Virus record (IMG/VR): IMGVR_UViG_3300048503_000032 | Span: 42,773 to 106,772 of that record | Reading direction: 5' to 3' (one strand) | Origin: a virus | Lineage: Duplodnaviria; Caudoviricetes | DNA length: 64,000 bases | Part shown: positions 3,814 to 58,978 of the stretch, piece by piece | Numbering within the stretch: the first letter of the stretch is position 1 | How the letters are laid out: each line of letters opens with the position of its first letter | Translations under genes and position numbers: made by a program | Notes under the pieces: model-generated | Told to the model about the DNA's origin: nothing | Database searches by the model: none | The model's input: only the letters and a program-made list of their open reading frames with translations

Positions 3814-4773
3814 ATGGCTGGAATGAAGGCGAAGTCTATTAAGTCGGTGATCGTGCGCAAGATGACGGCCTGGCTGGAGTCCATCGAGGACGAGGCTCTG
3901 CGCAAGCAGGTAGCCGCCTCGATTGTGGTGACGGGGGGTTGCATCGCGTCTATGCTACAGGGCGAACCTGTGAATGACTTTGATGTCTACTTGCGTGACT
4001 ATGAGACTGCGGTCAAGGTGGCTGAGTACTACGTCGGCAAATTCGAGCCGCGTAAGGCCAGCGGTATCAAGGTTCCGCTGTTCGTGGACGCGGATGCCAG
4101 CGCCAAGCGCGTCAAGATCGTAGCGAAGTCGGCTGGGATTGCCAGCGAAGAGGGAACCTCGAAGCCATATCAATACTTTCGAGTCACATCCTGAGCAAGT
4201 CGGAGAAGAGTATGTCGCCGACGTGATGGATCGCCCCGATCAAATCATGGATGCACATGAAGAGACGGAGCAACTCGCCATTGCAGACGCATCGGATGGC
4301 AAGCCAAAGTACCGCCCCGTCTTCCTCACGAGCAACGCCATTACGCTGAGCGACAAGATACAGATCGTACTCCGCTTTCAGGGTGAGCCGGACGACATTC
4401 ACGCGAACTACGACTTCGTTCACTGCACGTCGTACTGGACAAGTTGGGATGAGAAGCTTGTGTTGAAGCCGGAGGCGATGGAGTCGATTCTGTGCGAAGG
4501 AGCTGCGCTATGTTGGGAGCAAATATCCCATCTGTTCAGTCGTCAGATTGCGCAAGTTCATCGCGCGAGGATGGCGGATAAACGCCGGTCAAATCTTGAA
4601 GATGGCGATGCAGATTTCGGCGCTAGACCTTACCGACTTGGCGGTACTTGAAGATCAGCTCACCGGAGTCGACACCGCATACTTTCTGCAACTGATCGAG
4701 AAGCTGAAGGAGAAAGATCCGGACGAAGGTGAACGCGGCATACCTGGTGGAGATCATCGACCGGATGTTCTGA
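3814..4773 (+). pseudogene. Nucleotidyltransferase-like phage protein broken by three +1 frameshifts (or sequencing errors)
   Basis: VVTGGCIAS...NDFDVY Pol-beta-type motif, NYDFVH, RLRKFIARGW; pieces join if single bases near 4179, 4496 and 4726 are removed. Confidence 0.75.
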
Positions 4774-8141: not shown

Positions 8142-11100
8142 ATGTTCAGGATACTGCGCAGCTGGCATACGGCATTCAAAGCTCGGATGATTCGATACTT
8201 TCGCACCCGCGAGGTGGTGAAGGTATTCAGTGTCATGCATGCAGAAGAGTTGCGTCTGACACCGATTGAGAACTGGCCTTTGGTCAAGGCTCGGCAAAAT
8301 CAAGAAATCAGGATGTTGAGAGCAGGACAGAATCTTATCGTAGACAGGAAGTCGTGGGCGTTCCCTTACCTCCCGTCATGTTTAGACGACCAGACTGAAA
8401 TTCTTACCAAGCGGGGGTTTATCCCGGTTACAGCGATGAAGCGTAGCGATATGTTCGCTACGCGGCATCCTGTGTCTCATCGGTTTGAGTGGCAGCGGGC
8501 TGGGCGGATTGTTCGGTCTAGGTACAAAGGTGAGATGGTGGAGATGCTGGGGCAGCAGCTCGACGTTCTGGTGACTCCGAATCATCGAGTTGTTAATATC
8601 CAGAAGACTGAGGGCATTGATCGTTTATTGTGTTCGTCATCTGAGCAGATTGACTTAGCAGGCGACCTGTCTACGACCAACCGACGCAGTATTTATGCTT
8701 TGCCTCTTACGGCCAAGCCGGATAAGTCGTATAGTATGGTTCCGCAGTCGGTCGTCTTGACGCCAATCAAGAGGAATATACAAGACCGTAATTCGCTGGA
8801 GCTTGATATTCCATTCGAGGTTTGGGTACAGTTTCTTGCTCTGTATCTAGCAGAGGGATGTTGTGACGGAACGACGGAAGGGATCGAGTTTGGTACTGGT
8901 GTTTCGTTTGAAGGGTATGAGGAGAAGTGGAATAAATTGCTTGCGGACTTTGAGGCAGATCCGTTCGAGGTAGCGGAGCGGCGGCGGAATAACAAGTATC
9001 GGGTGCGGATTGCGTGCGCAGAGGGGTCGGAGATTCGCAAGGACGTAGCGGAGCTGCTTGCACAGATGCCGAATACTTGGACGCCGAATAAGTTCGGGTT
9101 TGACTGCGGATGCAAGGCTTTGTGGATGGCGTTGTTTCCTTTTGGGCATTGCTGGACGAAGTACGTTCCGGACGATGTTAAGAATCTTCCGGTCGAGCAC
9201 CTGGGGGCGTTTCTTGATTGGTTAATGAAGACGGATGGATATTCAGCGCATGGCGATGATTATCATCAAGAGTATGGGACGACGAGCAGAAGGTTCGCCG
9301 AGGACGTACAGGAGATTTTACTCAGGCTCGGGTATCAGGTAGGTGTTCGTACAAAACTGATGGATTGCGGCTCGACATTCTACAGAATATCGTTTAGTCG
9401 TGAGCAGTATTGTAACGTGAGGTCTATCCGTCGTGTGGACTATGATGGGTATGTTTACTGTCCGTCAGTTCCCAATGGGATTATTTGTGTGCGCCGGAAC
9501 GGGAAGATTCATTGGACTGGTAACAGCGTTCAGCGGCTTTCTATGCCAGTTTCCAAGTCGACGCCATTTAACCTGAGACGTTTCTCACGGACTCCGGTTG
9601 CGCGTAGGGCCATCAACCTCATCAAGAATTCAGTGACTGCTCAGGCCTGGGATGTACGTCCGATCGATGGGATTCCAGTAGACGATCCTGACGAGCAGGC
9701 ACAGCGTATCAAGATCGCCAAGGCGATCTTTAACCACCCCAACAATACCGAAAGTCATCAGTCCGAGCTGGAGATGGAGATCGAGGATCTCTGCATCATG
9801 GGAGCGTCGGCTACGGAGCTGCGCTTGACGCTTGACCCGAAGCGTCCGCTCAAGATGTGGCCAATGGACGCATCGACTGTTAGAATATTTGTCAGTTGGT
9901 CGGAGTCTACGCCCGACTTGCCGCACTACGCACAGATGACAGGCTTGCAGGGAGAGCGCGGAGCGATCTTGTTTTACGACGACGAGATCATGTACATCAA
10001 GGACAATCCGGCGACGGATAATCCGTTTGGTTTGGGCAAGCTCGAGACAGCATTCCAGGTTGTGAATGATTTGCTTGGCGTGCAGCGTATGTCAGGTATG
10101 GCAGGATCTGATCAGACTAGAAAAAACTGGCTGTGGTGGGAGCAGCCTCAGACTGACGAGGCATTTCAGATCGTGCGTCGTCATATTCAGAATGAACTTG
10201 AAGGACAGGCGAAGGTATCGCTCATCGGGGGTATGAAGAAGCCCGATGTGCTGGAGATCACGCCGGTCACTATCGATGACTTGCTACTGCCCTGGCACGA
10301 GATGTTGATTCGCATGATTGCGAATGCGTTTGATATGTCGGCGATGGCTCTGGGCATCGAGCACGACGTGAATCGCGCAGTGGGAGATGTACTCAAGGAT
10401 TCCGACTTCCGCTCGGCTGTGGTGCCGATGGCGAAGAGGATTCAGGAAGCGCGCACCAGAAAGATTCTGCACAATAAGCTGGGCTGGTACGACCTTGAGT
10501 ATGTGTTCCTGAGCTTGGATGATCCGGACTTGGAAACCAAGACGGATATGAACGCGCGCATGTACTCGGCGAATGCGCTGACTCCGAATGAATGGCGGCT
10601 GAGCGTTGGCAAGCAGCCGTTGAAGTCTTCGTTCGCAGACTTGACACAGTTCGAGGCCATGATGCTGAATCAGGAGTTGATGGCTCAGTTGACGGATCAG
10701 TCGGCGCAGAAGACTTTCGACCGTCAGCAGTCGGCGCAGCAGTCGGCCCCGGCTGGCGGAGCAGGAGGAGAAGGCCCGAAGCCTCCGTCGCAGGGATCGA
10801 TCTCACGCGGTGGACAGATTGAATCGCCGAAGCCTATGGCGCTGCCGAAGTTCCCGATTGCTGGCACCAAGTGGAATGCTCGGGAGATTGCACAGATGCC
10901 GGTTAACGATTTGGCGCAGCGTATCGACGGTGGAGAGTTGCCGCATCCGAAGAAGCTGTTGATCGACATGCAGAATCAAGATCCGAATATCCTTGAGCAG
11001 ATGTCGGATCAGGTGAAGGACTACTTCAAGCATGTACTGGACGACGAGGCATCGGAAGATCAGGACGAAGAGATCCCGCAGAAGACGCTCGATCAGATGA

Positions 11101-14817: not shown

Positions 14818-17800
14818 GTGAACCTCGCTCACCTGTCTACGATCTCTACCAATGCGACGTCGGGCCTCCTGTCGAAGACACAGGGGGCTTTGGCGCGTGC
14901 TATCGAGGCATATTCCGATGATGAGGATAGAGATTCGTCTGGGAAGTGGACGAGCGGGGATGATCGGCGCGCTCAGAGTGTTTTGAAGCCTCAGGTGGAA
15001 TACGAGCAAGTTGTGAAGAACTACATGGAGGATATCCGGCAAGGTAAAGATGTCGGAGCGGTGCTGGTGAGCGATAAGGATCATTCGCATATCGTCGATG
15101 GAAATCATAAGACTGAGGCGTACTTGCGTTTGGGTAAGCAGCCACCTCGCGTGTATGCTGTGGATCGGCTTAAGACACTTATCCAGATGGGACAGGAAAA
15201 TAAAACGGCTGATGAGGTAGCTGACAGTATCGGAGAATGGCTGAAGTCTGAAGACATAAAAGCCTACTCGGAGGATGAGGAGCGCGACGATCACGGCAAG
15301 TGGTCATCGGGCGGCAGTCTGAAGCCTGCGGAGGAAGATCGCACTCAGTGGCCGCAGCACATTCAGGATCTGAAGGTTCCGCCGGCGTGGAAGGACGTTC
15401 ACTACTCGGACGATCCTAAGGCGGCTCTGCTGGCGACTGGCAAGGATGCCAAGGGCCGTGATCAGCGGGTGTACTCGAAAGAGTTTCAGGACTCACAGGC
15501 GGGGCTGAAGTTCGAGCGGGTGGAAGAGCTGGGGAAGCAGATGGGATTGATCGACCAGCAGTTGATTGCCGATCGCAAGAGTGACGATGATAAAACCAAA
15601 GAGCATGCGGATGCGGCTCTGCTGGTGCGCACGATGGGAGTTCGTCCTGGCAGCGAGACGGATACCAAGGCCAAGGTACAGGCTTACGGGGCGACCACGC
15701 TCGAGGGCCGTCATGTGCGCGTTAGCACGACGGGCAATGTCAGATTGAACTTCACCGGCAAGAAGGGCGTAGGCATCAATCTGCCGGTCGAAGACAAACA
15801 GGTCGCTGCGATGCTGGTATCGAGAAAGGCCGACGCTGGCAACAGCGGACAGATATTCCCGCATGTGTCGAACAGCAGTCTGCTCGACTATGTCCACGAC
15901 AACCTGGATCATGGCGGTTTCAAGAGCAAGGACTTCAGGACGTATCTCGGCACATCGACGGCTCAGGGTCTGGTGTCATCGATGAAGGAGCCTGCTACGC
16001 CCAAGGATTATGTGAAGGCTGTTCGGTCTGTGGCGTCGGCTGTAGCGGAGAAGCTCGGGAATACTCCCGCGGTAGCGTTGTCATCCTACATAGCTCCACA
16101 GGTTTTCAGCGGATGGAAGATGCATGCTGGTGTGACAGCAGAGGCTATGGAGTTGCCTCAGGTCTACTACGGTGAGGTGTCGGATAATCAGCGCGACTTC
16201 AGGGATGTGGCTGGGCTGTTTGATAGCAGTGATACGGATGATGGCGACGACAGCGATGGCAGTGTGGAGAAGATGCTCGGTTTCGATCCTGCGAAGATGG
16301 GGATTGCAGCATCAGTTTTACGACGGTCTACTGCGAGGGAACGTACGCAGAAGAAGGCGCTGTTCGTTAAGCGTGAATGTGCGACGTTGCTGGCGGAGTT
16401 CGATGAGGAGCAGCATCCACGCGATGAGCATGGAAAGTTTACGGATGGTGGAGGCGAGACCACTACCGATCGCACCAGTTGGCACTTCGATGACTTCCAT
16501 CCAGAGGATAAAATCAACGGTATACCTCTGGCGCATATGTCGCATCCGGACTTCGAGAAATATACGAATCCTGACTTGAAGGAGACACCGCTGAAGGTCG
16601 GGCCTGGTCAGCATGCCGCGGCCGGCGTGATCATGATCGAGCCTGGGAACAAGGTGTGGATTGTCACGCCGGATAAATACTTCGGCGGGTACCGCAACAC
16701 ATTCCCTAAGGGCACACAGGAGTCTGGGGAGGCTTTGCAGACTACGGCGGTGAGGGAGACTTATGAGGAGTCGGGACTGGTGGGAAAGATTACAGGCGTG
16801 CTGGGCGACGTTGATCGCACTACGTCATCTACGCGTTACTATATCGGGGAGCGGGTCGGGGGTTCGCCTGCGATGGCGGGCGAGGAGACCTACGCGGTCA
16901 AGCTCCTAGACCTCAACGATCCGAAGACGGATGAGCGGTTGCAGGATGTAATGGGGAAGACCACCAAGGATGCGGACGTGCTCAGCATGATCAGAGAGCA
17001 TCTCGGCATCGAGCAGCCTGCTCAGCCTGAGGCTCCAGCGACGGGAAAGATGACGGCAGCCGACATCATGGACAAGAAGATCGGCGGATCGCAGGGGTCG
17101 AATGTTGGCGGGTTCTATAAGGGCACGGATGGCGTGGACAGGTATGTGAAGCTGTACAACAATCCGGAGCAGGCGCATGGCGAGGTGCTGGCGAATACTA
17201 TCTATCGGGATCTCAACATCCCGGCCCCACAGTCACAGGTGTTCAGTTTGCCGAACGGCAAGGAAGCATTCGCGTCGGATATAGTTCATGGCGGAAAGAC
17301 GCTAGAGCAGACTGGTGTGACTAAAGAGAATGCTCGGGAGGTGTTGAAGGGCTTCGCCGCGGATGTGCTGACTGCGAACTGGGATACGGTCGGATTGACT
17401 TACGACAACATTCTGCTGAAGGGCGGACAGGCGTATCGTTTGGATAATGGATCGGCATTCCTGTATCGCGCGCAGGGCGGACAGAAGCCAGATGCTCTGC
17501 TTAATAAGGTGACGGAGCTGAAGGGATTTCTTAGTCCTACGGTCAACCGAGAATATGCGAAGATGGCGAAGGTAGCGGGATACACTTCGGCGGATGAGAT
17601 ACCCGGATTTCGTTCTCAGGTGAAAGCGATTGCGGCGCTCGAGAAGGTTGCCGGTGGTTGGGGTAAGTATTTGGATGCGAAAGCACCGTATCTGAGCGCG
17701 AACGAAAGGTCTAAGATAGGGGATATGCTGACCAGTCGAACGGCCGGGTTGAAGGAAGCAGCGGGTGTGAGCGATTCATTGCATGACAAGATTAAGAATC

Positions 17801-51217: not shown

Positions 51218-52840
51218 GTGGTGTTCTACTTCGTCGGTATCCTATTTCGATTTCGAGGTTCGTCAATGAGCGTGACTGGCATCTCCCGTATGGTGGATTC
51301 GTGCAGCGACATGGTTCACAAGAAGGCAATCAAAACTTACCAGCATATTGCTCCGGAGAATAAGCGTTGGATCGACCTCGAAGACGTGATCCAAGAGGGT
51401 TTGATTAAGGCGTGGGAAACCGAGCAGTCTTACACGCAGCACTGGGCAGAGTCTGACGCACCGACTCATTTCAAGAGCAAGTTTTCGACCTACCTATTCC
51501 GTGGACTCGACATGCTGTTCTCTGGCCGGTACTCGATTCCGTTGAGCGCGCGTAAGCGGGTTACCAAGTTGGTCGAGTTGGATGCGCCGATCGGTGGCGA
51601 GGACGGCGCTTCCCACATCGATATCCCATCGCATAATGTATCGCCAGAGAGAATGTTTCAGGCTATCTCGGGTGTGGTGCAGGTCTGCTACGCTATTCCG
51701 CCGGCGGCGCTGTCGTTTCTGCTGGGCGTGATTGTCTCGGATGCGGGCAGGATTAGACGACGGACAGCGAATGACATAGCATGTATTCCAGATGCATGTT
51801 CCAGGTTTGGGGTCACTCGGTACGACTTAGAGTTGATCATGGGCGATCTGGAGTCGAAGAGCAGAGTGCTGGAGAGCGTGATGGCGGCAGATGCGAAGTT
51901 GGGCGAGGACGATGTCAAGGTGCTGGAGTGTGTGACGTGCCGGGGGATGTTCTCTCTGGGCGATGTCAGGACGGGCAATTACTCGGTGACCAGTCTTACC
52001 TGCCATGCATGTTTGAAGAAATTGTACGAAGAATCGGACAGCAGCTCTTGCTTTGGACGCATGAAAGTGGTATACAATAACAAGACGGCGACAGAGGGTT
52101 ACTCTGAAGCCGATACAGAATGCAGACTTCATTGTAGGGATCGTGCAGCATGTAGGAAATTCATCAAGGAAGGTAGGACGAATATGACACCTGAGAAAGT
52201 TGCCAATATGGAATTCGATCTGGAAGATGTAGACCTGAGCAACATCGAGGCTGCGGAACCCGTGGCCACCACAACCAAACCTGCGAAGAGCAGCAGCAAG
52301 AAGGCCGCAGCCAAGGCACCGGCGAAGACCGTAACCAAGGCAGTGAAGAAGGCGGAGCCGGTCAAGGCAGCGAAGAAAGCGGAAGCTCCCAAGGCCGATA
52401 AGACAGCAGTCAAGGCACCGGCGAAGGTGGCGACGAAGAAAGCGGCCAAGCCCGAGGGCGAGAAGCATGTGCGGACTGCCAAGTCCACGGCCAAGATCGA
52501 TCCGAAGGTGGCCAAGGCGCAGGGACTCATCAAGCTCGACGACCAGGGCCGCGACCTGCCGTTCAAGCAGGGATCAACGATGCGGTATTGTCTGGAGCAG
52601 GCGCTGGCTCCGGGCGGCGTGAAGGAGAAGGATCTGGAGAGGGAGCTGACCAAGCTCGGGTATTCGTATCCGTTGCAGCGGTCTGTCCTGATGTCCGGCA
52701 AGAGCGGCGACAGTTCGTTCAGACCCTACCCCAGCACGCATGTGTGGAAGGCTGAAGTGAAGGGCGACCGAATCATCGTGTCGGACGTTAAACGGATCGC
52801 TTTTTATCACAAGATGGCGCGCATTCAGTCTGCGAAGTAA
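51218..52840 (+). CDS. Sigma-factor region 2-like domain + Cys-rich domain + Lys/Ala-rich histone H1-like region (start uncertain; internal start likely at 52184)
   Basis: DLEDVIQEGLIKAW...KFSTY; CVTC, CHAC, CFG, CRLHC; KKAAAKAPAK repeats. Confidence 0.7.
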   Translation: MVFYFVGILFRFRGSSMSVTGISRMVDSCSDMVHKKAIKTYQHIAPENKRWIDLEDVIQEGLIKAWETEQSYTQHWAESDAPTHFKSKFSTYLFRGLDMLFSGRYSIPLSARKRVTKLVELDAPIGGEDGASHIDIPSHNVSPERMFQAISGVVQVCYAIPPAALSFLLGVIVSDAGRIRRRTANDIACIPDACSRFGVTRYDLELIMGDLESKSRVLESVMAADAKLGEDDVKVLECVTCRGMFSLGDVRTGNYSVTSLTCHACLKKLYEESDSSSCFGRMKVVYNNKTATEGYSEADTECRLHCRDRAACRKFIKEGRTNMTPEKVANMEFDLEDVDLSNIEAAEPVATTTKPAKSSSKKAAAKAPAKTVTKAVKKAEPVKAAKKAEAPKADKTAVKAPAKVATKKAAKPEGEKHVRTAKSTAKIDPKVAKAQGLIKLDDQGRDLPFKQGSTMRYCLEQALAPGGVKEKDLERELTKLGYSYPLQRSVLMSGKSGDSSFRPYPSTHVWKAEVKGDRIIVSDVKRIAFYHKMARIQSAK

Positions 52841-52866
52841 TCGGCCGGCAAGCTGGTTAGGTTGGC

Positions 52867-52901
52867 GAGGTCATCCTAGAGATGGGATGGCCTCACTTTT
52901 T
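52867..52901 (+). terminator. Intrinsic terminator insulating the tRNA array
   Basis: GAGGTCATCCT-agagat-GGGATGGCCTC-ACTTTTT. Confidence 0.85.
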
Positions 52902-52938
52902 ACTTGCAGGAATATCGAGTCTGTGGTGTACTCAATAA

Positions 52939-53014
52939 AGCGGCCGAGTGATGATGGCTTCACGCCAGTCTCATAAGCTGGAAATCGGCAGTTCGACTCT
53001 GCTGGCCGCTACCA
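52939..53014 (+). tRNA. tRNA-Met/Ile2 (CAT), upstream of attenuator 1
   Basis: AGCGGCC/GGCCGCT, CCAGT-CTCATAA-GCTGG, TTCGA, CCA. Confidence 0.88.
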
Positions 53015-53028
53015 TTAGGAGTACGGAA

Positions 53029-53112
53029 ATGAAGATGCAGTTATCCAGTTCGCGCTATCTCTCGTCACTCGATTGCCTGAGTGCGAGTCGGCGTGTTCTG
53101 GATCAGACTTAG
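53029..53112 (+). CDS. Leader peptide 1 MKMQLSSSRYLSSLDCLSASRRVLDQT
   Basis: AGGAG RBS; L/S/Y/D/C codons match block 1 tRNAs. Confidence 0.85.
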   Translation: MKMQLSSSRYLSSLDCLSASRRVLDQT

Positions 53113-53164
53113 CAAGAGATGATCTGAAGCACACCGACCCGCCAGATGGCGGGTTTTGTTGTTT
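53083..53164 (+). terminator. Attenuator 1: antiterminator 53083-53142 versus terminator 53136-53164
   Basis: GTCGGCGTGTTCTGGATCA pairs with TGATCTGAAGCACACCGAC; ACCCGCC-agat-GGCGGGT-TTTGTTGTTT. Confidence 0.85.
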
Positions 53165-53241
53165 GCGGGGATACGCAAATCGGCAAAGCGGGGATTCCTA
53201 AAAAGTCCTGTCTGCGGGTTCGAGGCCCGCTCCCCGTACCA
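53165..53241 (+). tRNA. tRNA-Leu (TAA), C33
   Basis: GGATT-CCTAAAA-AGTCC; CCA end. Confidence 0.8.
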
Positions 53242-53243
53242 GG

Positions 53244-53318
53244 GCACGACAAGACAATCGGATAGTCGGCAGACTGCAAATCTGCTCTTGTCCCGTTCGA
53301 CTCGGGAGTCGTGCTCCA
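53244..53318 (+). tRNA. tRNA-Cys (GCA)
   Basis: GCAGA-CTGCAAA-TCTGC; U73; CCA. Confidence 0.9.
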
Positions 53319-53336
53319 GTTCTTTGACAATTGATT

Positions 53337-53414
53337 GCGCTGGTGACGGGAATAGGAATACCTATCAGGTCGAGAGCCTGGTGATTGTGGGTTCGAGGCC
53401 CACCCAGCGCACCA
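53337..53414 (+). tRNA. tRNA-Leu (GAG), C33
   Basis: TCAGG-TCGAGAG-CCTGG; CCA. Confidence 0.85.
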
Positions 53415-53417
53415 TGT

Positions 53418-53494
53418 GCCGGTGTATGCAAATAGGCAAAGCAGCTTCGCTTAGAACGAAGTGTTTGGGGGTTCGATTCCCTTCACCGGTACCA
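53418..53494 (+). tRNA. tRNA-Leu (TAG)
   Basis: CTTCG-CTTAGAA-CGAAG; CCA. Confidence 0.9.
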
Positions 53495-53500
53495 AGTTTG

Positions 53501-53581
53501 GCCGATGTACGCAAACAGGCAAAGCGGCGAAGCTCAAAACTTCGTGATTGACTGTCGGTTCGATTCCGACCATCGGCACCA
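53501..53581 (+). tRNA. tRNA-Leu (CAA)
   Basis: CGAAG-CTCAAAA-CTTCG; CCA. Confidence 0.9.
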
Positions 53582-53586
53582 AGTAT

Positions 53587-53680
53587 GATGGGATGGCTGA
53601 GCGGCTGAAGGCTCTGGTTTGCTAAACCAGCGCACCTCTTTATCGGGGTGTCGTGAGTTCGAATCTCACTCTCATCGCCA
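53587..53680 (+). tRNA. tRNA-Ser (GCT)
   Basis: CTGGT-TTGCTAA-ACCAG; long variable arm; CCA. Confidence 0.93.
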
Positions 53681-53684
53681 GTTT

Positions 53685-53773
53685 GGAGGGTTGGCCGAGT
53701 GGCTGAAGGCACTAGTCCTGAAAACTAGAATACCGAGAGGTATCGCGGGTTCAAATCCACGCACCCTCCTCCA
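53685..53773 (+). tRNA. tRNA-Ser (TGA), C33
   Basis: CTAGT-CCTGAAA-ACTAG; long variable arm; CCA. Confidence 0.88.
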
Positions 53774-53777
53774 TTTC

Positions 53778-53869
53778 GCAAGCGAGGACAGATACGGTTG
53801 GCTGCACCTGACTGTAAATCAGGATCCTCTTCGAGGACATTGGGAGTTCGAATCTCTCCGCTTGCACCA
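53778..53869 (+). tRNA. tRNA-Tyr (GTA)
   Basis: CCTGA-CTGTAAA-TCAGG; long variable arm; CCA. Confidence 0.93.
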
Positions 53870-53873
53870 GTTT

Positions 53874-53947
53874 GGTTTCGTCGTTCAATGTAGGATGCTC
53901 CCTTGTCAGGGGATAAGATGCGGGTTCAAGTCCCGTCGAAACCGCCA
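53874..53947 (+). tRNA. tRNA-Asp (GTC)
   Basis: TCCC-TTGTCAG-GGGA; G73; CCA. Confidence 0.88.
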
Positions 53948-53959
53948 TAAAATTAGTTG

Positions 53960-53988
53960 TTGCATTTCAAGGGAACGTATGGGAAGCT
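53960..53988 (+). promoter_or_regulatory. Candidate promoter for tRNA block 2
   Basis: TTGCAT-17 nt-GAAGCT with TGn extension; weak -10. Confidence 0.45.
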
Positions 53989-53998
53989 AGGAATCGAT

Positions 53999-54070
53999 AT
54001 GAAGCATCTGGCGACAACGCGCGCGTTCCCAACCCAGGCACAACAGCCGGGTGGTAATCGTATGCGCTAG
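53999..54070 (+). CDS. Leader peptide 2 MKHLATTRAFPTQAQQPGGNRMR
   Basis: Codons match all 13 block 2 tRNAs; stop abuts antiterminator. Confidence 0.85.
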   Translation: MKHLATTRAFPTQAQQPGGNRMR

Positions 54071-54072
54071 TC

Positions 54073-54140
54073 GCTGGGGTTTTATGCGCGAGGATTCTCG
54101 CAGAACATACACCCTGGCCAACCAGCCAGGGATTTTTATT
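54073..54140 (+). terminator. Attenuator 2: antiterminator 54073-54118 versus terminator 54112-54140
   Basis: GCTGGGGT/ACCCTGGC outer stem, TATG/CATA, GCGAG/CTCGC; CCCTGGC-caacca-GCCAGGG-ATTTTTATT. Confidence 0.88.
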
Positions 54141-54163
54141 GCTCGGTATCTCAATTGATTTGA

Positions 54164-54250
54164 TGGGGTGTGCCCGGAACGGTATCGGCCTCGGCTGTTA
54201 ACCGAAGTGCTCAAAAGAGGATGGGGGTTCGACTCCCTCCGCCCCAGCCA
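54164..54250 (+). tRNA. tRNA-Asn (GTT), enlarged variable region
   Basis: TCGG-CTGTTAA-CCGA; G73; CCA. Confidence 0.85.
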
Positions 54251-54263
54251 GTATAATGGGAGG

Positions 54264-54854
54264 ATGAGAAAAGATATCCAAGCAGCGGGTACTAAGGCTT
54301 CGGCGGCGTTATCAAGACAGAAAGCTATTGATCTGTATTCCGAGAGTCCGAATCGATGCTTACAGTGTTTAGCTGTGATTGAGTTGCGTGGACGTAGGTC
54401 TTCTATTGTTAGGCGACAGAAGTTTTGCTCACATGGATGTGCTGGCAGTTACAACAACAGTCGCTTTCCGAAGCGTAAGCCGGAAGGTCAGTGTGAAGGA
54501 TGTGGGACACCGATAAGGGCGTGCTTGAAGTATTGCAGTCATAAGTGCAGGGCAAAATATCGTAGGCATAGAACGCGAGAAGAAGTGGCGGCTGGGAACG
54601 TGCAGGCTGTGATCGGTTGGAGGACGCGAACTAAGGATAAGGCGGTTGCATACAAGGGAGGAAAATGTTGCCGATGCGGTTACGACAGATGTGTCAGGGC
54701 ATTGGATTTTCACCATGTAGATCCTTCCAAGAAAGATTTTGCGGTAAGCAGGGTTTCAAAGTCGTGGGCGGTAATTAAGGCGGAGTTGGATAAGTGTATT
54801 TTGCTGTGCTCCAACTGTCACCGAGAGTTTCACGACGGGATGTGGAAGATGTAA
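54264..54854 (+). CDS. HNH endonuclease with Zn-finger repeats (free-standing homing type)
   Basis: CCRCG...ALDFHH...CILLCSNCHREFH; TATAAT 6 nt before ATG. Confidence 0.9.
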   Translation: MRKDIQAAGTKASAALSRQKAIDLYSESPNRCLQCLAVIELRGRRSSIVRRQKFCSHGCAGSYNNSRFPKRKPEGQCEGCGTPIRACLKYCSHKCRAKYRRHRTREEVAAGNVQAVIGWRTRTKDKAVAYKGGKCCRCGYDRCVRALDFHHVDPSKKDFAVSRVSKSWAVIKAELDKCILLCSNCHREFHDGMWKM

Positions 54855-54862
54855 GAGATTGT

Positions 54863-54937
54863 TCCCCGTTCGTTCAAATGGGAGGACGCAATCCTCTGAA
54901 GATTGTCATGGTGGTTCGAGTCCATCGCGGGGAACCA
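54863..54937 (+). tRNA. tRNA-Gln (CTG)
   Basis: CAATC-CTCTGAA-GATTG; CCA. Confidence 0.9.
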
Positions 54938-54944
54938 GAATTAT

Positions 54945-55054
54945 CGGGAGCTAGTGTAAACGGCCTGAGCCAGAGCCCTACGGGACGGAATGCTCAAAGC
55001 ACGGAGCGCATGGGGCGCTCTAGTGCGAGACTGGCAGCCTCGCAATCCCGACCA
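54945..55054 (+). ncRNA. Aberrant tRNA-like RNA (Pro-like acceptor, expanded D region, no TTC loop)
   Basis: CGGGA/TCCCG-A-CCA; GAGCG-CATGGGG-CGCTC; TGCGAG/CTCGCA stem. Confidence 0.6.
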
Positions 55055-55061
55055 AGTTTGA

Positions 55062-55135
55062 TCGCTAGTCGTTCAACGGTAGGACGGATGGTGTTGACCC
55101 ATCAGATCAGGGTTCGATCCCTTGCTGGCGATCCA
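55062..55135 (+). tRNA. tRNA-Gln (TTG), G33
   Basis: GATGG-TGTTGAC-CCATC; CCA. Confidence 0.82.
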
Positions 55136-55146
55136 GAAGTTGTAGT

Positions 55147-55220
55147 GCGGAATCGGTGTGACGGTCGCATGGAATCTTGCCGAGATTCGGGCGAGGGTTC
55201 GACTCCCTCATTCCGCTCCA
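55147..55220 (+). tRNA. tRNA-Gly (GCC)
   Basis: GAATC-TTGCCGA-GATTC; U73; CCA. Confidence 0.9.
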
Positions 55221-55226
55221 GTTTGT

Positions 55227-55301
55227 GCCGGTGTAGCTTAGATGATAGAGCGTCGCACTCGTAACGCGATGACCCCGGTTTGATTCCGGGCACTGGCTCC
55301 A
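55227..55301 (+). tRNA. tRNA-Thr (CGT)
   Basis: TCGCA-CTCGTAA-CGCGA; CCA. Confidence 0.88.
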
Positions 55302-55312
55302 GAAAGGTAAGG

Positions 55313-55870
55313 ATGATGAGAAATGTGATGCGCAGTCCGGTGCTGGTGCTGAATGCGTCATACGAGCCGTTGCACATCTGTGCTGCGCGTCGTGCTCTTA
55401 CGTTGATCGTGAAGGACTGCGCTGTCATTCAGCATGACACTGGTCGGCAGGTTCATGTCGGCATAATGTTTCCTTCAGTGATTCGGCTGAAGCGTTACGC
55501 GAGGGTTCCGCATCGCGCTCAGGAGATGACGAGAAAGAACATCCTCATGCGCGACGACTATCGGTGCCAGTATTGCGGAGAGGTGTTCTCAGGTGCGGAG
55601 TTGACGCTTGATCACATACTTCCGCGGGCACAGGGCGGTTTATCGACGTGGGAGAATCTGGTGGCTGCGTGCGGTGAGTGTAACCGGCGCAAGGGCAACC
55701 AGACTCCCGAAGAGGCGGGTATGCCTTTACTGAGGCGTCCCAGGCCGGTCACGCTGCACACCGCTCGCGGGATCTTGCGGGCACAGGCCAGTGACGAGAA
55801 GGTGTGGCAGAAGTATCTGTTTTATGACAACGCAGGTTGCCAGGAAGGAGTCACGTTTGGGCCGTCGTAG
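55313..55870 (+). CDS. HNH endonuclease (McrA-like, VLVLNASYEPL family)
   Basis: RDDYRCQYCG...TLDHILP...GG..TWENLVAACGECNRRK. Confidence 0.92.
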   Translation: MMRNVMRSPVLVLNASYEPLHICAARRALTLIVKDCAVIQHDTGRQVHVGIMFPSVIRLKRYARVPHRAQEMTRKNILMRDDYRCQYCGEVFSGAELTLDHILPRAQGGLSTWENLVAACGECNRRKGNQTPEEAGMPLLRRPRPVTLHTARGILRAQASDEKVWQKYLFYDNAGCQEGVTFGPS

Positions 55871-55936
55871 CTCGTATGGAAGAGCACTCGCTTGGTAAGC
55901 GAGAGGTAGCGAGTTCGACTCTCGCAGGCGGCTCCA
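55861..55936 (+). tRNA. tRNA-Thr (GGT)
   Basis: CTCGC-TTGGTAA-GCGAG; CCA. Confidence 0.9.
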
Positions 55937-55940
55937 GTTT

Positions 55941-56012
55941 GCCGGTATCGCATGGTGCTGAGTCTCATTTGTAACGAGACTCTTACGGGTTCGATTCCTG
56001 TTGCCGGCCCCA
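55941..56012 (+). tRNA. tRNA-Thr (TGT), reduced D arm
   Basis: TCTCA-TTTGTAA-CGAGA; CCA. Confidence 0.78.
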
Positions 56013-56019
56013 AAGATGT

Positions 56020-56095
56020 GGAGAGGCTGGCAGAGTGATTATGCGCCGGTCTGTGGAGCCGGTTTACATCGGTTTGATCCCGATGCCTCTCCCCA
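56020..56095 (+). tRNA. tRNA-His (GTG)
   Basis: G-1:C73; CCGGT-CTGTGGA-GCCGG; CCA. Confidence 0.9.
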
Positions 56096-56100
56096 ACAAG

Positions 56101-56170
56101 TCCGGAGACGTAGGGTTCGATGCCTACTCGTCATAGAAATGTGGCGGTCGTCTAGTGGCAGGATACCGGG
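56101..56170 (+). ncRNA. Circularly permuted tRNA-like element (3' half precedes 5' half)
   Basis: TCCGG-agac-T arm-TCGTCAT, 6-nt linker, GTGGCGG-D arm-CCGGG; halves pair in acceptor and anticodon stems. Confidence 0.6.
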
Positions 56171-56186
56171 GCTATGAATACAATTC

Positions 56187-56266
56187 GGGGCGTAGGACTA
56201 CATGCGGTGGTCGCTTCTCTTGCAAAGAAGATATTCAGGTGGGTTGGATTCCCGCACGCTCCACCA
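56187..56266 (+). tRNA. tRNA-Ala (TGC)
   Basis: G3:U70; CTTCT-CTTGCAA-AGAAG; CCA. Confidence 0.88.
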
Positions 56267-56272
56267 AGTTTT

Positions 56273-56348
56273 GCTGCTTGCGTAGGTCTGGTGATTACGC
56301 TGGTCTGAAAATCCAGAGAACGCAGTTCGATTCTGCGAGGCGGCACCA
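56273..56348 (+). tRNA. tRNA-Phe (GAA)
   Basis: CTGGT-CTGAAAA-TCCAG; CCA. Confidence 0.88.
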
Positions 56349-56353
56349 AGTAT

Positions 56354-56427
56354 CGGGGTAGGGTGTGACGACCGCATCCTAGTTTTGGGAACTAGTGGAT
56401 CGGGTTTGACTCCCGGTGCCCCGACCA
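56354..56427 (+). tRNA. tRNA-Pro (TGG)
   Basis: CTAGT-TTTGGGA-ACTAG; C1:G72, A73. Confidence 0.88.
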
Positions 56428-56431
56428 TTTA

Positions 56432-56507
56432 CGGAGAGTGGCCAAGAGGAAAGGCTCCAGTTTCGGGAACTGGGAATTCGTGAGTTCGAGTCTCACCTCT
56501 CCGACCA
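56432..56507 (+). tRNA. tRNA-Pro (CGG)
   Basis: CCAGT-TTCGGGA-ACTGG; CCA. Confidence 0.92.
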
Positions 56508-56513
56508 GAGTTT

Positions 56514-56589
56514 GTCCCTTTGGTGAAATGGAATATCACACGAAGCTACGAACTTCGAGTTGCGGGTCTGAGTCCCGCGGGGGGCACCA
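56514..56589 (+). tRNA. tRNA-Arg (ACG)
   Basis: CGAAG-CTACGAA-CTTCG; CCA. Confidence 0.88.
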
Positions 56590-56598
56590 TTTTAGAAG

Positions 56599-56628
56599 TT
56601 GCATCCCACGCTGGAGAGATGGTATGGT
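56599..56628 (+). promoter_or_regulatory. Candidate promoter for tRNA block 3
   Basis: TTGCAT-18 nt-TATGGT with TGn; embedded in an inverted repeat. Confidence 0.55.
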
Positions 56629-56694
56629 TTCTCCAGTGCAACAAAAGCATGAATGCTCCGGCCCGGAGGGTAAGTTGGGCACGAATTGAAATCC

Positions 56695-56769
56695 ATGAGA
56701 CAGACCTTCAAACACGAGATAACCATTAGGCGCGCTGAAAAGCGGGTCATGTGGGGGATCGTGTTTTAA
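56695..56769 (+). CDS. Leader peptide 3 MRQTFKHEITIRRAEKRVMWGIVF (may start at TTG 56686)
   Basis: Codons match all 13 block 3 tRNAs; TAA overlaps first base of antiterminator. Confidence 0.85.
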   Translation: MRQTFKHEITIRRAEKRVMWGIVF

Positions 56770-56825
56770 GGGGTCTGCGCTGTGGTACCACCAGACCCCT
56801 CGCTCAGTGCGAGGGGCTTTTTATT
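56769..56825 (+). terminator. Attenuator 3: antiterminator 56769-56800 versus terminator 56796-56825
   Basis: AGGGGTCTG/CAGACCCCT perfect 9 bp; CCCCTCGC-tcagt-GCGAGGGG-CTTTTTATT. Confidence 0.9.
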
Positions 56826-56845
56826 GTTCTTTGAGATGATGATGT

Positions 56846-56915
56846 GCCGGGTGATCTGAGATCAGGTGAGCCTCCAAATCTCGCCAGCTAGGTTCGATTC
56901 CTAGACCTGGTGCCA
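56846..56915 (+). tRNA. tRNA-Trp (CCA), reduced D arm
   Basis: loop CTCCAAA; CTAGG-TTCGATT-CCTAG; G73; CCA. Confidence 0.8.
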
Positions 56916-56916
56916 C

Positions 56917-56988
56917 GGCTCGTACCTCTGGCGAGGACGCAGGACTCATAACCCTGTTCACTGAATTCGATTTTCAGGCGAGCCACCA
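56917..56988 (+). tRNA. tRNA-Met/Ile2 (CAT)
   Basis: CAGGA-CTCATAA-CCCTG; CCA. Confidence 0.8.
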
Positions 56989-56989
56989 T

Positions 56990-57084
56990 AGAGGACAGCA
57001 CCGACGTGCGGCGGAGTCTTATAAACTCTGGAAAGGCTGCGGACTGCGGCTAACGGGAGGGATTGACACCCTCGTCCTCTACCA
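56990..57084 (+). tRNA. tRNA-Ile (TAT) with long variable arm
   Basis: AGAGGAC/GTCCTCT; GGAGT-CTTATAA-ACTCT; atypical T loop; CCA. Confidence 0.75.
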
Positions 57085-57085
57085 T

Positions 57086-57162
57086 GCCTCGATAACTCAA
57101 TCGGTTTAGAGTCCTGCCTCTTAAGCAGCGAGACCCAGGTTCGATTCCTGGTCGGGGCACCA
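57086..57162 (+). tRNA. tRNA-Lys (CTT)
   Basis: CTGC-CTCTTAA-GCAG; CCA. Confidence 0.92.
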
Positions 57163-57168
57163 AGTTTC

Positions 57169-57245
57169 GGAAGCGTAACTCAACGGGTTCAGAGTCTCGC
57201 CTTTTAAGCGATGAGACGGGGGTTCGAGTCCTCCCGCTTCCACCA
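57169..57245 (+). tRNA. tRNA-Lys (TTT)
   Basis: TCGC-CTTTTAA-GCGA; CCA. Confidence 0.92.
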
Positions 57246-57246
57246 T

Positions 57247-57321
57247 GCAGCCGTCGTCCAACGTATAGGGCATCGATCTTCTAAATCGAGGACGTGAGTT
57301 AGACTCTCACCGGCTGCTCCA
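57247..57321 (+). tRNA. tRNA-Arg (TCT)
   Basis: TCGAT-CTTCTAA-ATCGA; CCA. Confidence 0.88.
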
Positions 57322-57327
57322 TTTTAT

Positions 57328-57401
57328 GGCGCGTTCGTTCAACGGCAGGACATCGGTTTTTCACATCGAGAACAAGAGTTCGACCCTCTTACGCGCTACC
57401 A
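57328..57401 (+). tRNA. tRNA-Glu (TTC)
   Basis: TCGGT-TTTTCAC-ATCGA; CCA. Confidence 0.9.
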
Positions 57402-57407
57402 AGTTTT

Positions 57408-57483
57408 GCCGTGATCCGCCAAGCGGCTAGGCGACTGGATTCTCACTCCAGCAATCCGAGTTCAAGCCTCGGTCACGGTACCA
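57408..57483 (+). tRNA. tRNA-Glu (CTC)
   Basis: CTGGA-TTCTCAC-TCCAG; CCA. Confidence 0.9.
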
Positions 57484-57485
57484 GT

Positions 57486-57561
57486 CACTCTGCGGTGAAA
57501 TTGGATATCACGGTGCTCTCCGAAGGCGCAGTTTCGAGTTCGAGTCTCGACGGGGTGACCA
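57486..57561 (+). tRNA. tRNA-Arg (CCG)
   Basis: GTGCT-CTCCGAA-GGCGC; CCA. Confidence 0.88.
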
Positions 57562-57570
57562 TCAAGTTTC

Positions 57571-57645
57571 GCTCCCTTCGTTCAGTGGACAGGACGATGA
57601 CCTCCTAAGTCGTAGACGGCAGTTCGACTCTGCCAGGGAGTACCA
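57571..57645 (+). tRNA. tRNA-Arg (CCT)
   Basis: ATGAC-CTCCTAA-GTCGT; CCA. Confidence 0.92.
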
Positions 57646-57649
57646 GATT

Positions 57650-57727
57650 GCAAGCGTGGGCCAGCGGCGACGCCGCCTCTCCTACAAAGAGGAATTACCG
57701 GAGGTTCGAGTCCTCCCGCTTGCACCA
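57650..57727 (+). tRNA. tRNA-Val (TAC), C33
   Basis: CCTCT-CCTACAA-AGAGG; CCA. Confidence 0.85.
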
Positions 57728-57790
57728 GTTCGTTCCCGTCATCCAGCGGCTAGGATGATCGCCCGATTAGCTTATGGTATATTCGAGTTT

Positions 57791-58267
57791 ATGAAGAGGA
57801 AGCCTTGTTGCCGCTGTGGGTCTACTAAGAATGTGATGGTCAAGGGGCATGCTTACTGCCGTGTGTGCAATAACGCATACAGTAAGAAATATTACTATGC
57901 TGATCGTGAGGGACGCCTCGCAAAGATTGCGGAGTATGTGCGGAAGTTGCGTCTTCGTAGGAAAGCGTTGATTAACGACTTGAAGAGTCGTCCGTGTGTT
58001 GATTGCGGTAGGACTTTCCCGGCTGTTTGTATGGATTTTGATCATCTAGACGGTACGAATAAGCAGGGTTGTGTCAGTTCTATGGTGAACAATACTGGAG
58101 CTTCTCTAAAGCGTGTGATGGCAGAGATAGCCAAATGCGATTTGGTTTGTGCGAATTGCCATCGTATTCGAACGCATCATCGTACGGTAGCTCAACAGGT
58201 AGAGCATGCGCTTGATAAGCGCAAGGTAGTTGGTTCAAGACCAACCCGTACGACCAAGATTAGATGA
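57791..58267 (+). CDS. HNH endonuclease (free-standing homing type)
   Basis: CVDCG...MDFDH...CDLVCANCHRIRT; 3' end runs through tRNA-Ile. Confidence 0.88.
   Translation: MKRKPCCRCGSTKNVMVKGHAYCRVCNNAYSKKYYYADREGRLAKIAEYVRKLRLRRKALINDLKSRPCVDCGRTFPAVCMDFDHLDGTNKQGCVSSMVNNTGASLKRVMAEIAKCDLVCANCHRIRTHHRTVAQQVEHALDKRKVVGSRPTRTTKIR
58181..58256 (+). tRNA. tRNA-Ile (GAT)
   Basis: TGCGC-TTGATAA-GCGCA; CCA. Confidence 0.92.
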
Positions 58268-58299
58268 GGGAGTTCGAGTCTGAGCGGGAACACCAATAT

Positions 58300-58374
58300 G
58301 CGGGCATAGCCAAGTGGAAAGGCATGAGGTTTCCACCCTCACATGCGCCGGTTCAATCCCGGCTGCTCGCTCCA
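58300..58374 (+). tRNA. tRNA-Gly (TCC)
   Basis: TGAGG-TTTCCAC-CCTCA; U73; CCA. Confidence 0.92.
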
Positions 58375-58429
58375 TATTCCCTCTTGACGGCCATCAGGTC
58401 GTCTATAGTGGTGTCAGGAGGGTAAAACG

Positions 58430-58978
58430 ATGCGCTACGTTCGTCTACACGGGGTTGTTGGGGCTGTGGTGGTGGGTTTCCTTGCCGGCGGGCTGGCGCT
58501 GGCTCAGCAGGCGGTCTACGGGCATTCTCAGGGTAAGTTTCTACCAGATCCGAAGGTCACCCCTGGGGCGGTCGACCCGAGCCTGGTGGCGGATCTGACG
58601 AAGGCTCCACACATGGTGGCCGGCGTCGAGCATAATATCTGTGCCGCGGACTTCAGGACTCCGCCGTTTCGGGTGGCCACCAAGAGCCAGAAAATCAAGA
58701 CGGCGGTCTGTAAGGCTTACGGCATCCTGAATGGATGCCCTGGGTCACAATGGGAGTTGGATGACATCATCCCGATTGAGGTTGGCGGGCAGAATATACA
58801 GATCAATCTTTGGCCGCAGAACATAGGCGAGGCTCGGGTCAAGGATCATCAGGTGGAGGACTTGCTTGGAGGCCCGAAGGGTTTGGTCTGCCGCGGGAAG
58901 ATCAGTCTGTCGGATGCGCAGTCGTGCATCGTGAATGATTGGACGGCTTGCGCTGTTCGGATCGCCGCGCTGAAGTAA
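58430..58978 (+). CDS. Signal-peptide-bearing HNH-like protein
   Basis: Hydrophobic N-terminus ending ALA; LPDPKVTPGA, ELDDIIPIEVGG..NLWPQ (first His replaced by Asp). Confidence 0.7.
   Translation: MRYVRLHGVVGAVVVGFLAGGLALAQQAVYGHSQGKFLPDPKVTPGAVDPSLVADLTKAPHMVAGVEHNICAADFRTPPFRVATKSQKIKTAVCKAYGILNGCPGSQWELDDIIPIEVGGQNIQINLWPQNIGEARVKDHQVEDLLGGPKGLVCRGKISLSDAQSCIVNDWTACAVRIAALK

Follow-up and report, generated by a model that had tools for sequence, protein, structure and literature searches.

A predicted ribosome-mediated attenuator gating a block of tRNA genes in a phage tRNA array

Introduction

Multivalent leader attenuators are known from enterobacteria, where the thr leader responds to threonine and isoleucine and that of ilvGMEDA to isoleucine, leucine, and valine; trp, his, leu, and pheA are further cases. 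The unit that we describe here, which lies in the tRNA array of a phage, has in common with these attenuators a short leader rich in regulatory codons, a set of 1:2, 2:3, and 3:4 pairings, and an intrinsic terminator, and it would likewise allow a stalled ribosome to pick the antiterminator, with termination following when the leader is translated either not at all or in full. It differs from them in its target, which is a block of tRNA genes rather than biosynthetic enzymes; in its leaders, which list up to 13 tRNA species, often with one codon each, whereas the enterobacterial leaders contain runs for one to three amino acids; and in its product, a tRNA that would directly relieve the signal being sensed. 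The E. coli pheST operon, in which attenuation at the pheM leader controls phenylalanyl-tRNA synthetase, resembles the phage unit in that a leader-peptide attenuator sets a component of the decoding apparatus by the supply of charged tRNA, but the component is a synthetase, the signal concerns one amino acid, and the operon lies on a bacterial chromosome. To our knowledge, the leader-peptide attenuators described so far all regulate genes for amino acid biosynthesis or transport or for synthetases; the genes behind the phage unit are nine tRNA genes, unlike those of the described members. T-box riboswitches likewise couple tRNA status to a choice between terminator and antiterminator, but they bind uncharged tRNA directly and without a ribosome. 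A search of positions 52800–58500 at E values up to 1 returned no T-box or other Rfam cis-regulatory family, only tRNAs and chance-level matches.

The reasons for which phages carry tRNA genes are a decades-old matter of debate, in which codon compensation, the decay of host tRNAs, and escape from tRNA-cleaving defences have all been invoked, and almost nothing is known of how these genes are regulated. Phage tRNAs have been described as replacements for tRNAs cleaved by host defences (PMC10264068, PMC11555353, PMC11464382); this work supplies a reason for making tRNAs on demand and concerns tRNA sequence and function, and PMC10264068 is silent on tRNA gene regulation, attenuation, and terminators. 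A long tRNA array in Anabaena sp. PCC 7120 is silent until translation is impaired; its control is at the promoter level and involves direct repeats together with what is presumed to be a repressor (PMC8421152). The likeness to our locus is that of a supernumerary tRNA array induced under translational stress, and the difference is that neither a leader ORF nor an attenuator or terminator is described for Anabaena (PMC8421152). Full-text searches spanning part of the journals turned up no description of tRNA genes controlled by leader-peptide attenuation, and the proposed application of this mechanism to tRNA blocks with multivalent leaders is the novel point of the present analysis.

Results

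Organization of the array and of unit 1

The DNA that we analysed, referred to below as the window, is the 64,000-nucleotide 3' portion of a 106,772-bp IMG/VR virus record estimated to be 91% complete. It is phage-like, with large genes that all lie on the + strand (as do the putative promoter, tRNA-Met, the three units, and block 1 described below), plus HNH endonucleases. A tRNA array of approximately 35 tRNAs spans positions 52939–58374; ARAGORN reports 30 of these at default settings, and Thr-tgt, Ala-tgc, Pro-tgg, and another cat tRNA appear once the settings are relaxed. Three units, each consisting of a leader ORF and a terminator, divide the array, and each stands ahead of its own block of tRNAs.

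Unit 1 follows a tRNA-Met(cat) gene (52939–53014; ARAGORN; Rfam tRNA model, 45.2 bits), which lies upstream of the attenuator and hence is not gated by it; judged by its sequence, this tRNA is elongator-like or Ile2-like and no standard initiator. A pattern search placed a tentative promoter, a weak consensus match (TTGCAG, 17 nt, TGTACT; 52904–52932) that a stricter consensus scan misses, so that it stops 6 nt 5' of the tRNA; the promoter is approximately 95% conserved, and the tRNA 93% identical, in a related metagenome contig, L005, to which we return below. Just behind the tRNA, a Shine-Dalgarno sequence (AGGAG, 53017–53021, conserved in L005) precedes by 7 nt the ATG at 53029 that opens leader ORF 1, which comprises 27 codons and a TAG stop (53029–53112), in agreement with an initial sequence-only reading of this locus.

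Four RNA segments of the kind found in the trp attenuator can be assigned to the unit. Region 1 (53036–53071), identified from ribosome-free folds and from the stall scan described below, is the 5' half of a long leader hairpin and would act as the anti-antiterminator. Region 2 (53077–53105), the 5' strand of the predicted antiterminator, lies in the tail of the ORF and was identified by folding and a shuffle control; region 3 (53120–53145), the 3' strand, overlaps the terminator 5' arm (53136–53143). Folding thus recovers the antiterminator proposed in the sequence-only reading, 53083–53105 with 53120–53142, and extends it to 53077–53105 with 53120–53145. The intrinsic terminator (53136–53164), likewise located where that reading had placed it, has an 8-bp GC-rich stem with a 4-nt loop (53136–53155; -14.6 kcal/mol for the hairpin alone) followed by a U-rich tract to 53164.

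The end of the U-tract directly abuts the start of tRNA-Leu(taa) at 53165. We found no promoter-like site between terminator and tRNA, where there is no room for one, and block 1 can therefore be reached only by reading through the terminator. The block (53165–53947; ARAGORN) consists of the nine tRNAs that had been listed earlier: Leu-taa, Cys-gca, Leu-gag, Leu-tag, Leu-caa, Ser-gct, Ser-tga, Tyr-gta, and Asp-gtc. Rfam confirms seven of them, and the Cys and Leu-gag tRNAs are ARAGORN-only calls that fail the Rfam tRNA model.

Units 2 and 3 were identified by codon match and folding and share this layout. Unit 2 (53999–54141) consists of a leader ORF at 53999–54070, an antiterminator that begins at 54074, and a terminator at 54112–54141, and it precedes 13 tRNAs, from Asn to Arg-acg. 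Unit 3 (56695–56826) has its leader ORF at 56695–56769, an antiterminator that begins at the stop codon, and a terminator at 56796–56826, ahead of approximately 12 tRNAs, from the Trp-like element to Gly-tcc. A consensus scan and a pattern search yielded no clear promoters for either of these two units in the window. Leader 3 has no obvious Shine-Dalgarno sequence, and a short ORF in another frame (56649–56729), which contains eight codons cognate to block 3, overlaps its start.

Codon content of the leaders

We scored cognate codons under standard wobble rules, counting the 26 codons of leader 1 that follow the start. Fifteen are strictly cognate to block-1 tRNAs and together touch eight of the nine species (11 are not block-1 cognate); the one species without representation is Leu-caa, whose TTG codon is missing from the leader as had been remarked, and it is also correct that no phage tRNA is strictly cognate to the TCC codon. 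The leader contains seven codons for Ser, five for Leu, two for Asp (one of them in the tail), and one each for Cys and Tyr. The distribution is uneven: 14 of the 16 codons 5–20 specify Leu, Ser, Tyr, Asp, or Cys, as claimed, and the density of strictly cognate codons is 12/14 in codons 5–18 versus 3/9 in the tail (P = 0.02). Given the codon usage of the phage, the probability of at least 15 cognate codons is 3e-4 and that of touching at least eight species is 0.025; among 24,494 windows taken from real genes, 18 match the cognate count of leader 1 and none matches count and coverage together. Considered alone, leader 1 ranks only about third among the small ORFs of the genome for block-1 codons, and the case draws its strength from where the ORF lies, from the RNA structure, and from units 2 and 3.

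It is the comparison across units that sets the leaders apart. Leaders 2 and 3 cover 13/13 and 12/12 of the tRNAs behind them, and when every leader is paired with the block behind it, 33 of 34 tRNAs in the window are covered, versus 8–18 for any other pairing (chi-square P = 4e-10 for the 3x3 table of leaders against blocks). The proposal that the codons of leader 1 sense Leu, Ser, Cys, Tyr, and Asp is thus borne out at the level of codon content, in that they match the block downstream and not the other two. We also considered a preference of the leaders for wobble-read T-ending or rare codons, and rejected it (13 observed versus 11.7 expected, P = 0.36). Because Cys and Tyr are represented once and Asp only twice, unit 1 would mainly answer severe tRNA loss, or a shortage of Ser or Leu tRNAs; such a response would seem more in keeping with host tRNAs being lost during infection than with mild starvation.

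Predicted RNA switch of unit 1

In the folds without a ribosome, the leader forms a long hairpin, 53036–53071 with 53078–53114, and the terminator forms. To model stalling, we cut the nascent RNA off at the terminator loop, folded it with all positions masked until 13 nt past the A-site codon, and recorded the probability that the terminator 5' arm is paired upstream. This probability is 0.41 for A-sites at 53041–53047, rises to 0.73–0.93 at 53050–53068, and then falls to 0.46 at 53071, 0.24 at 53074, and about 0.05 at 53077–53080, and is 0.08–0.33 from 53083 to the stop. The stall window that is effective under this footprint model hence comprises approximately codons 8–14 (53050–53070), which sit within region 1, with a weaker effect at codons 5–7 and 15–16 and none from codon 17 onward; by the same model, the TTA, TCC, and AGT codons (5–7), together with any block-1 codons at or beyond 53077, have a poor position for sensing or none at all. 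Sequestration of the terminator arm exceeds that in 298 of 300 dinucleotide shuffles (control, 2/300). The footprint model on the nascent RNA yields a stall profile of the expected kind in the window, in L005, and in two further genomes introduced below, G003 and G004.

A different picture is obtained when the full-length RNA is folded to equilibrium with a ribosome mask, where the terminator is favoured at every ribosome position. Since the terminator always wins at equilibrium, the predicted switch would have to operate kinetically, like the choice made in trp attenuation. Within what sequence analysis can show, the interpretation offered by the sequence-only reading is supported. That an early stall would free the antiterminator strand is supported by the nascent-RNA model within the codon limits just given; that a ribosome near the stop would permit the terminator agrees with the loss of the antiterminator in that model, while the equilibrium fold gives the terminator everywhere and does not distinguish this position from others.

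Related arrays

Searches for a close cultured phage (near and distant DNA comparisons, and protein searches with two neighbouring genes) returned generic tRNA matches or nothing, scans of viral contigs with individual proteins of flanking genes gave no match, and an exact 27-nt leader pattern was absent from the viral and genome contigs searched. Relatives of the upstream gene at approximately 50% identity, including a complete genome (G001), are without any tRNAs, which marks the array as accessory.

A close relative is the metagenome contig L005, whose upstream gene is 72% identical as protein and 78% as nucleotides. Against that 78%, its promoter, tRNA-Met, leader, and attenuator show approximately 93% nucleotide identity. 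The leader differs by two codon substitutions and by an in-frame 3-nt insertion of TTG within the stall window; the other changes fall in loops, apart from one that keeps a G-U pair, and the terminator stem is conserved with an altered loop. Folding predicts that the switch is retained. The L005 block contains only Leu-taa, Ile-gat, and Gly-tcc, of which the Ser/Tyr/Asp/Cys-rich leader covers one in three; this is the chief evidence that the content of a leader can trail that of its block or become detached from it. Of the three leader changes, two, the gain of TTG and the loss of CTC, go in the direction expected for a block with Leu-taa as its sole Leu tRNA, although two events are anecdotal. 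This lone Leu tRNA (L005 3862–3938) is a homologue of the window's Leu-tag (53418–53494), at approximately 77% identity, with the anticodon taa, an apparent anticodon switch between relatives.

Homologues of the array's HNH gene pointed us to two diverged phages with complete genomes: G003, of 96.5 kb, with loci L066 and L017, and G004, of 134 kb, with locus L018. Both keep the tRNA order of the window and its three units, in arrays that are only approximately 70–80% identical where alignable. Their leaders cover 6/7, 12/12, and 10/11 tRNAs of their own blocks in G003 (28/30 in all) and 11/11, 13/14, and 10/10 in G004 (34/35); permuted assignments of leaders to blocks cover at most 20 tRNAs in any of the window, G003, and G004. 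The unit-1 orthologues (L066 1560–1634; L018 1399–1479) have terminator and antiterminator sequences that differ from those of the window, and their ORF tails, unrelated in sequence, are nonetheless predicted by folding to form the antiterminator strand. Modelled stall windows comprise codons 2–12 in L066 and 2–13 in L018, the part of each leader that is rich in Leu, Ser, (Cys), and Tyr. Over the three genomes, the density of cognate codons is 28/38 in the sensing part versus 14/36 in the tail (P = 0.0045).

Several differences in tRNA content among the three genomes are mirrored in the leaders. G003 has neither a Cys tRNA nor a Cys codon, and the window, the only one with an Asp tRNA in block 1, is also the only one with an Asp codon within the sensing part. 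Block 3 of G004 is without Glu-ttc, Glu-ctc, and Arg-cct, and its leader without GAA, GAG, and AGG; in G003, which has Glu-ttc only, the leader has GAA only; and in G004 Thr-ggt is relocated to block 3 and ACC is missing from leader 2. Mismatches also occur: G003 has a CTC codon and no Leu-gag, two genomes have TCC and no Ser-gga, and no codon represents the Pro-ggg of G004. For the tRNA species that vary, the association between leader and tRNA (14/2 versus 9/8) is borderline (Fisher P = 0.057), and the genomes are related and therefore not independent.

A fourth array, L027, has a different gene order and two blocks. One of its leaders has a coverage of 6/6 (tRNAs for Ser, Leu, Ser, Cys, Tyr, and Leu), and the other, of 24 codons, touches 18 of 24 further tRNAs; we saw no clear terminator behind the first of the two. 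A leaderless-type ORF of L027 rich in Leu, Ser, Cys, and Tyr (4400–4490) ends 6 nt before the first tRNA and has no evident terminator, and, if it is regulatory at all, it must work differently from unit 1 of the window. Most leaders in G003, G004, and L027 begin 6–10 nt past the -10 box of a promoter of the form TTGACx-N17-TAnnnT, so that the blocks in these arrays look like separate units with leaderless-type leaders; the picture is less clear for the promoter of unit 1 in G004 and for the leader of unit 3 in G003. Unit 1 of the window differs in that it follows a tRNA-Met and uses a Shine-Dalgarno sequence. The design is not universal, since in phage T5, our test case, the small ORFs among the tRNAs are neither codon-matched nor followed by terminators. 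A crude generic scan of two further arrays, L061 and L065, gave nothing, which is a weak negative given the strictness of the terminator finder; the 40-tRNA viral array L065 does contain a tRNA with the amber-reading anticodon cta (9390–9464; called Pyl by ARAGORN).

Further features of the array and its surroundings

The tRNA-like genes that default settings miss are Thr-tgt (55941–56012), Ala-tgc (56187–56266), Pro-tgg (56354–56427), a second cat tRNA, either Met or Ile2 (56917–56988), and a Trp-cca-like element (56845–56912) with a very short D-arm, spotted by eye and by a weak Rfam match. With these five included, the phage set can read all 20 amino acids, and the only codons without a strict cognate are U- and C-ending ones in the Ser (UCN), Pro, Val, and Ala boxes. 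Four tRNA-sized spacers without a call (54941–55060, 56096–56186, 56989–57085, and 57728–57790) may be decayed tRNAs or other small RNAs. Among individual tRNAs, Leu(gag) (53337–53414) apparently has C rather than U at position 33, and tRNA-Met (52939–53014) has G at position 8; phage tRNAs with unusual anticodon loops have been tied to escape from anticodon nucleases (PMC10264068).

Three HNH endonuclease ORFs lie inside the array (54264–54854, 55313–55870, and 57791–58267; PHROG matches with E values down to 7e-35). The second has homologues in G003 and G004 at the equivalent site, with Thr-cgt on one side and the following Thr tRNA on the other, and the frame of the third continues into tRNA-Ile(gat). 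Just 5' of the array, a gene of 540 amino acids (51218–52840) has no Pfam or PHROG match itself, but most of its homologues have a sigma-70 region-2 domain (PF04542), and members of the family share numerous invariant Cys residues and a central part rich in Lys and Ala. The gene may encode a phage sigma-like factor beside the tRNA module. ARAGORN also finds a permuted (two-piece) tmRNA before the window, at genome positions 15503–15875, and another permuted tmRNA lies within the G004 tRNA array (L018 6130–6545), which indicates that these phages encode ribosome rescue as well.

Discussion

Taken together, the codon match, the modelled folds, the position of unit 1, and its conservation in relatives make it probable, in our judgment, that the unit is a four-region, ribosome-mediated attenuator of the trp type that gates tRNA genes. 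We infer that the leader is translated, that translation is coupled to RNA polymerase, and that readthrough depends on stalling. Transcription would begin 5' of tRNA-Met and run into the leader, where a ribosome would load at the AGGAG and ATG and translate the 27-codon ORF close behind the polymerase. With fast decoding of the codons for Leu, Ser, Tyr, Asp, and Cys that lie in the initial two thirds of the ORF, the ribosome would reach the tail and the stop and cover region 2 (53077–53105), whereupon the terminator (53136–53164) would form and the nine tRNA genes would stay off. With no ribosome loaded, region 1 would pair with region 2 and the terminator would form too. Where a cognate aminoacyl-tRNA is scarce, the ribosome would instead stall at approximately codons 8–14 and mask region 1; the pairing of region 2 with region 3 would then hide the 5' arm of the terminator, and the polymerase would enter the genes for four Leu, one Cys, two Ser, one Tyr, and one Asp tRNA. 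The new tRNAs would speed decoding and so close a negative feedback loop on tRNA supply. Sister units 2 and 3 would act likewise on the other two blocks.

The alternative that survives best, which we nevertheless regard as unlikely, is that the leader gauges overall translation capacity, as affected by host shut-off, ribosome shortage, or antibiotics, and that its codon content is inherited or incidental. Such a gauge would accommodate the retention of the leader in L005 despite an unmatched block, the weak specificity conferred by single Cys and Tyr codons, and the precedent of the Anabaena array, which is induced by general translational stress (PMC8421152). An overall slow-down, however, would bring ribosomes to a stall wherever they are, leaving no need for pangram-like leaders, and the data show a block-specific partition of codons in three genomes, leaders that mirror the losses and moves of tRNAs, and a concentration of cognate codons in the stall-sensitive part.

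We consider it quite improbable that the hairpins are plain terminators or RNA-processing sites, with the short ORFs being untranslated chance frames. The properly spaced Shine-Dalgarno sequence and the in-frame indel of L005 speak for translation, the antiterminator exceeds its shuffles, each unit of the window, G003, and G004 fits, by its codons, the block behind it and none of the others, and a constitutive terminator with no room for a promoter behind it would silence block 1. This has to be set against the rank of leader 1, only about third for block-1 codons when taken by itself, and against a terminator that always forms at equilibrium. Least likely of all is that ORF 1 encodes a functional Ser/Leu-rich micro-protein whose transcript the terminator just ends: the N-terminal peptide (Lys, Leu, a Ser run, Tyr) is indeed conserved across the window, G003, and G004, but the C-terminal halves are unrelated, yet each makes an antiterminator strand, in 9/9 units from three arrays the composition of the leader is that of the tRNA list of the following block, and a transcript-ending terminator would leave the tRNA block promoterless.

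Under the attenuator reading, the trigger may be the loss of host tRNAs, whether by host shut-off or by anticodon nucleases; amino acid starvation would open the gate as well, without benefit to the phage. We put forward more tentatively, as a prospect to which we give somewhat less than an even chance, the broader view that in phages with near-complete tRNA sets the tRNA blocks constitute an on-demand, self-tuning decoding reserve, in which each leader serves as a test ORF that gauges decoding codon by codon and the tRNAs are transcribed only when those of the host are lost; this would be a sensor-effector counter-defence circuit made solely of RNA and the ribosome and conserved as a module across diverged phages.

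The correspondence between leader codons and downstream anticodons provides a sequence rule for annotating tRNA operons. If the proposed mechanism is true, leader-peptide attenuation extends to RNA genes and to multivalent leaders of up to 13 tRNA species, the idea that phage tRNAs replace lost ones becomes directly testable by simple reporters, and units of this kind would offer compact orthogonal sensors for individual tRNA pools. For the phage itself, it would mean that the decoding speed of defined codon sets is gauged and answered with the matching tRNAs.
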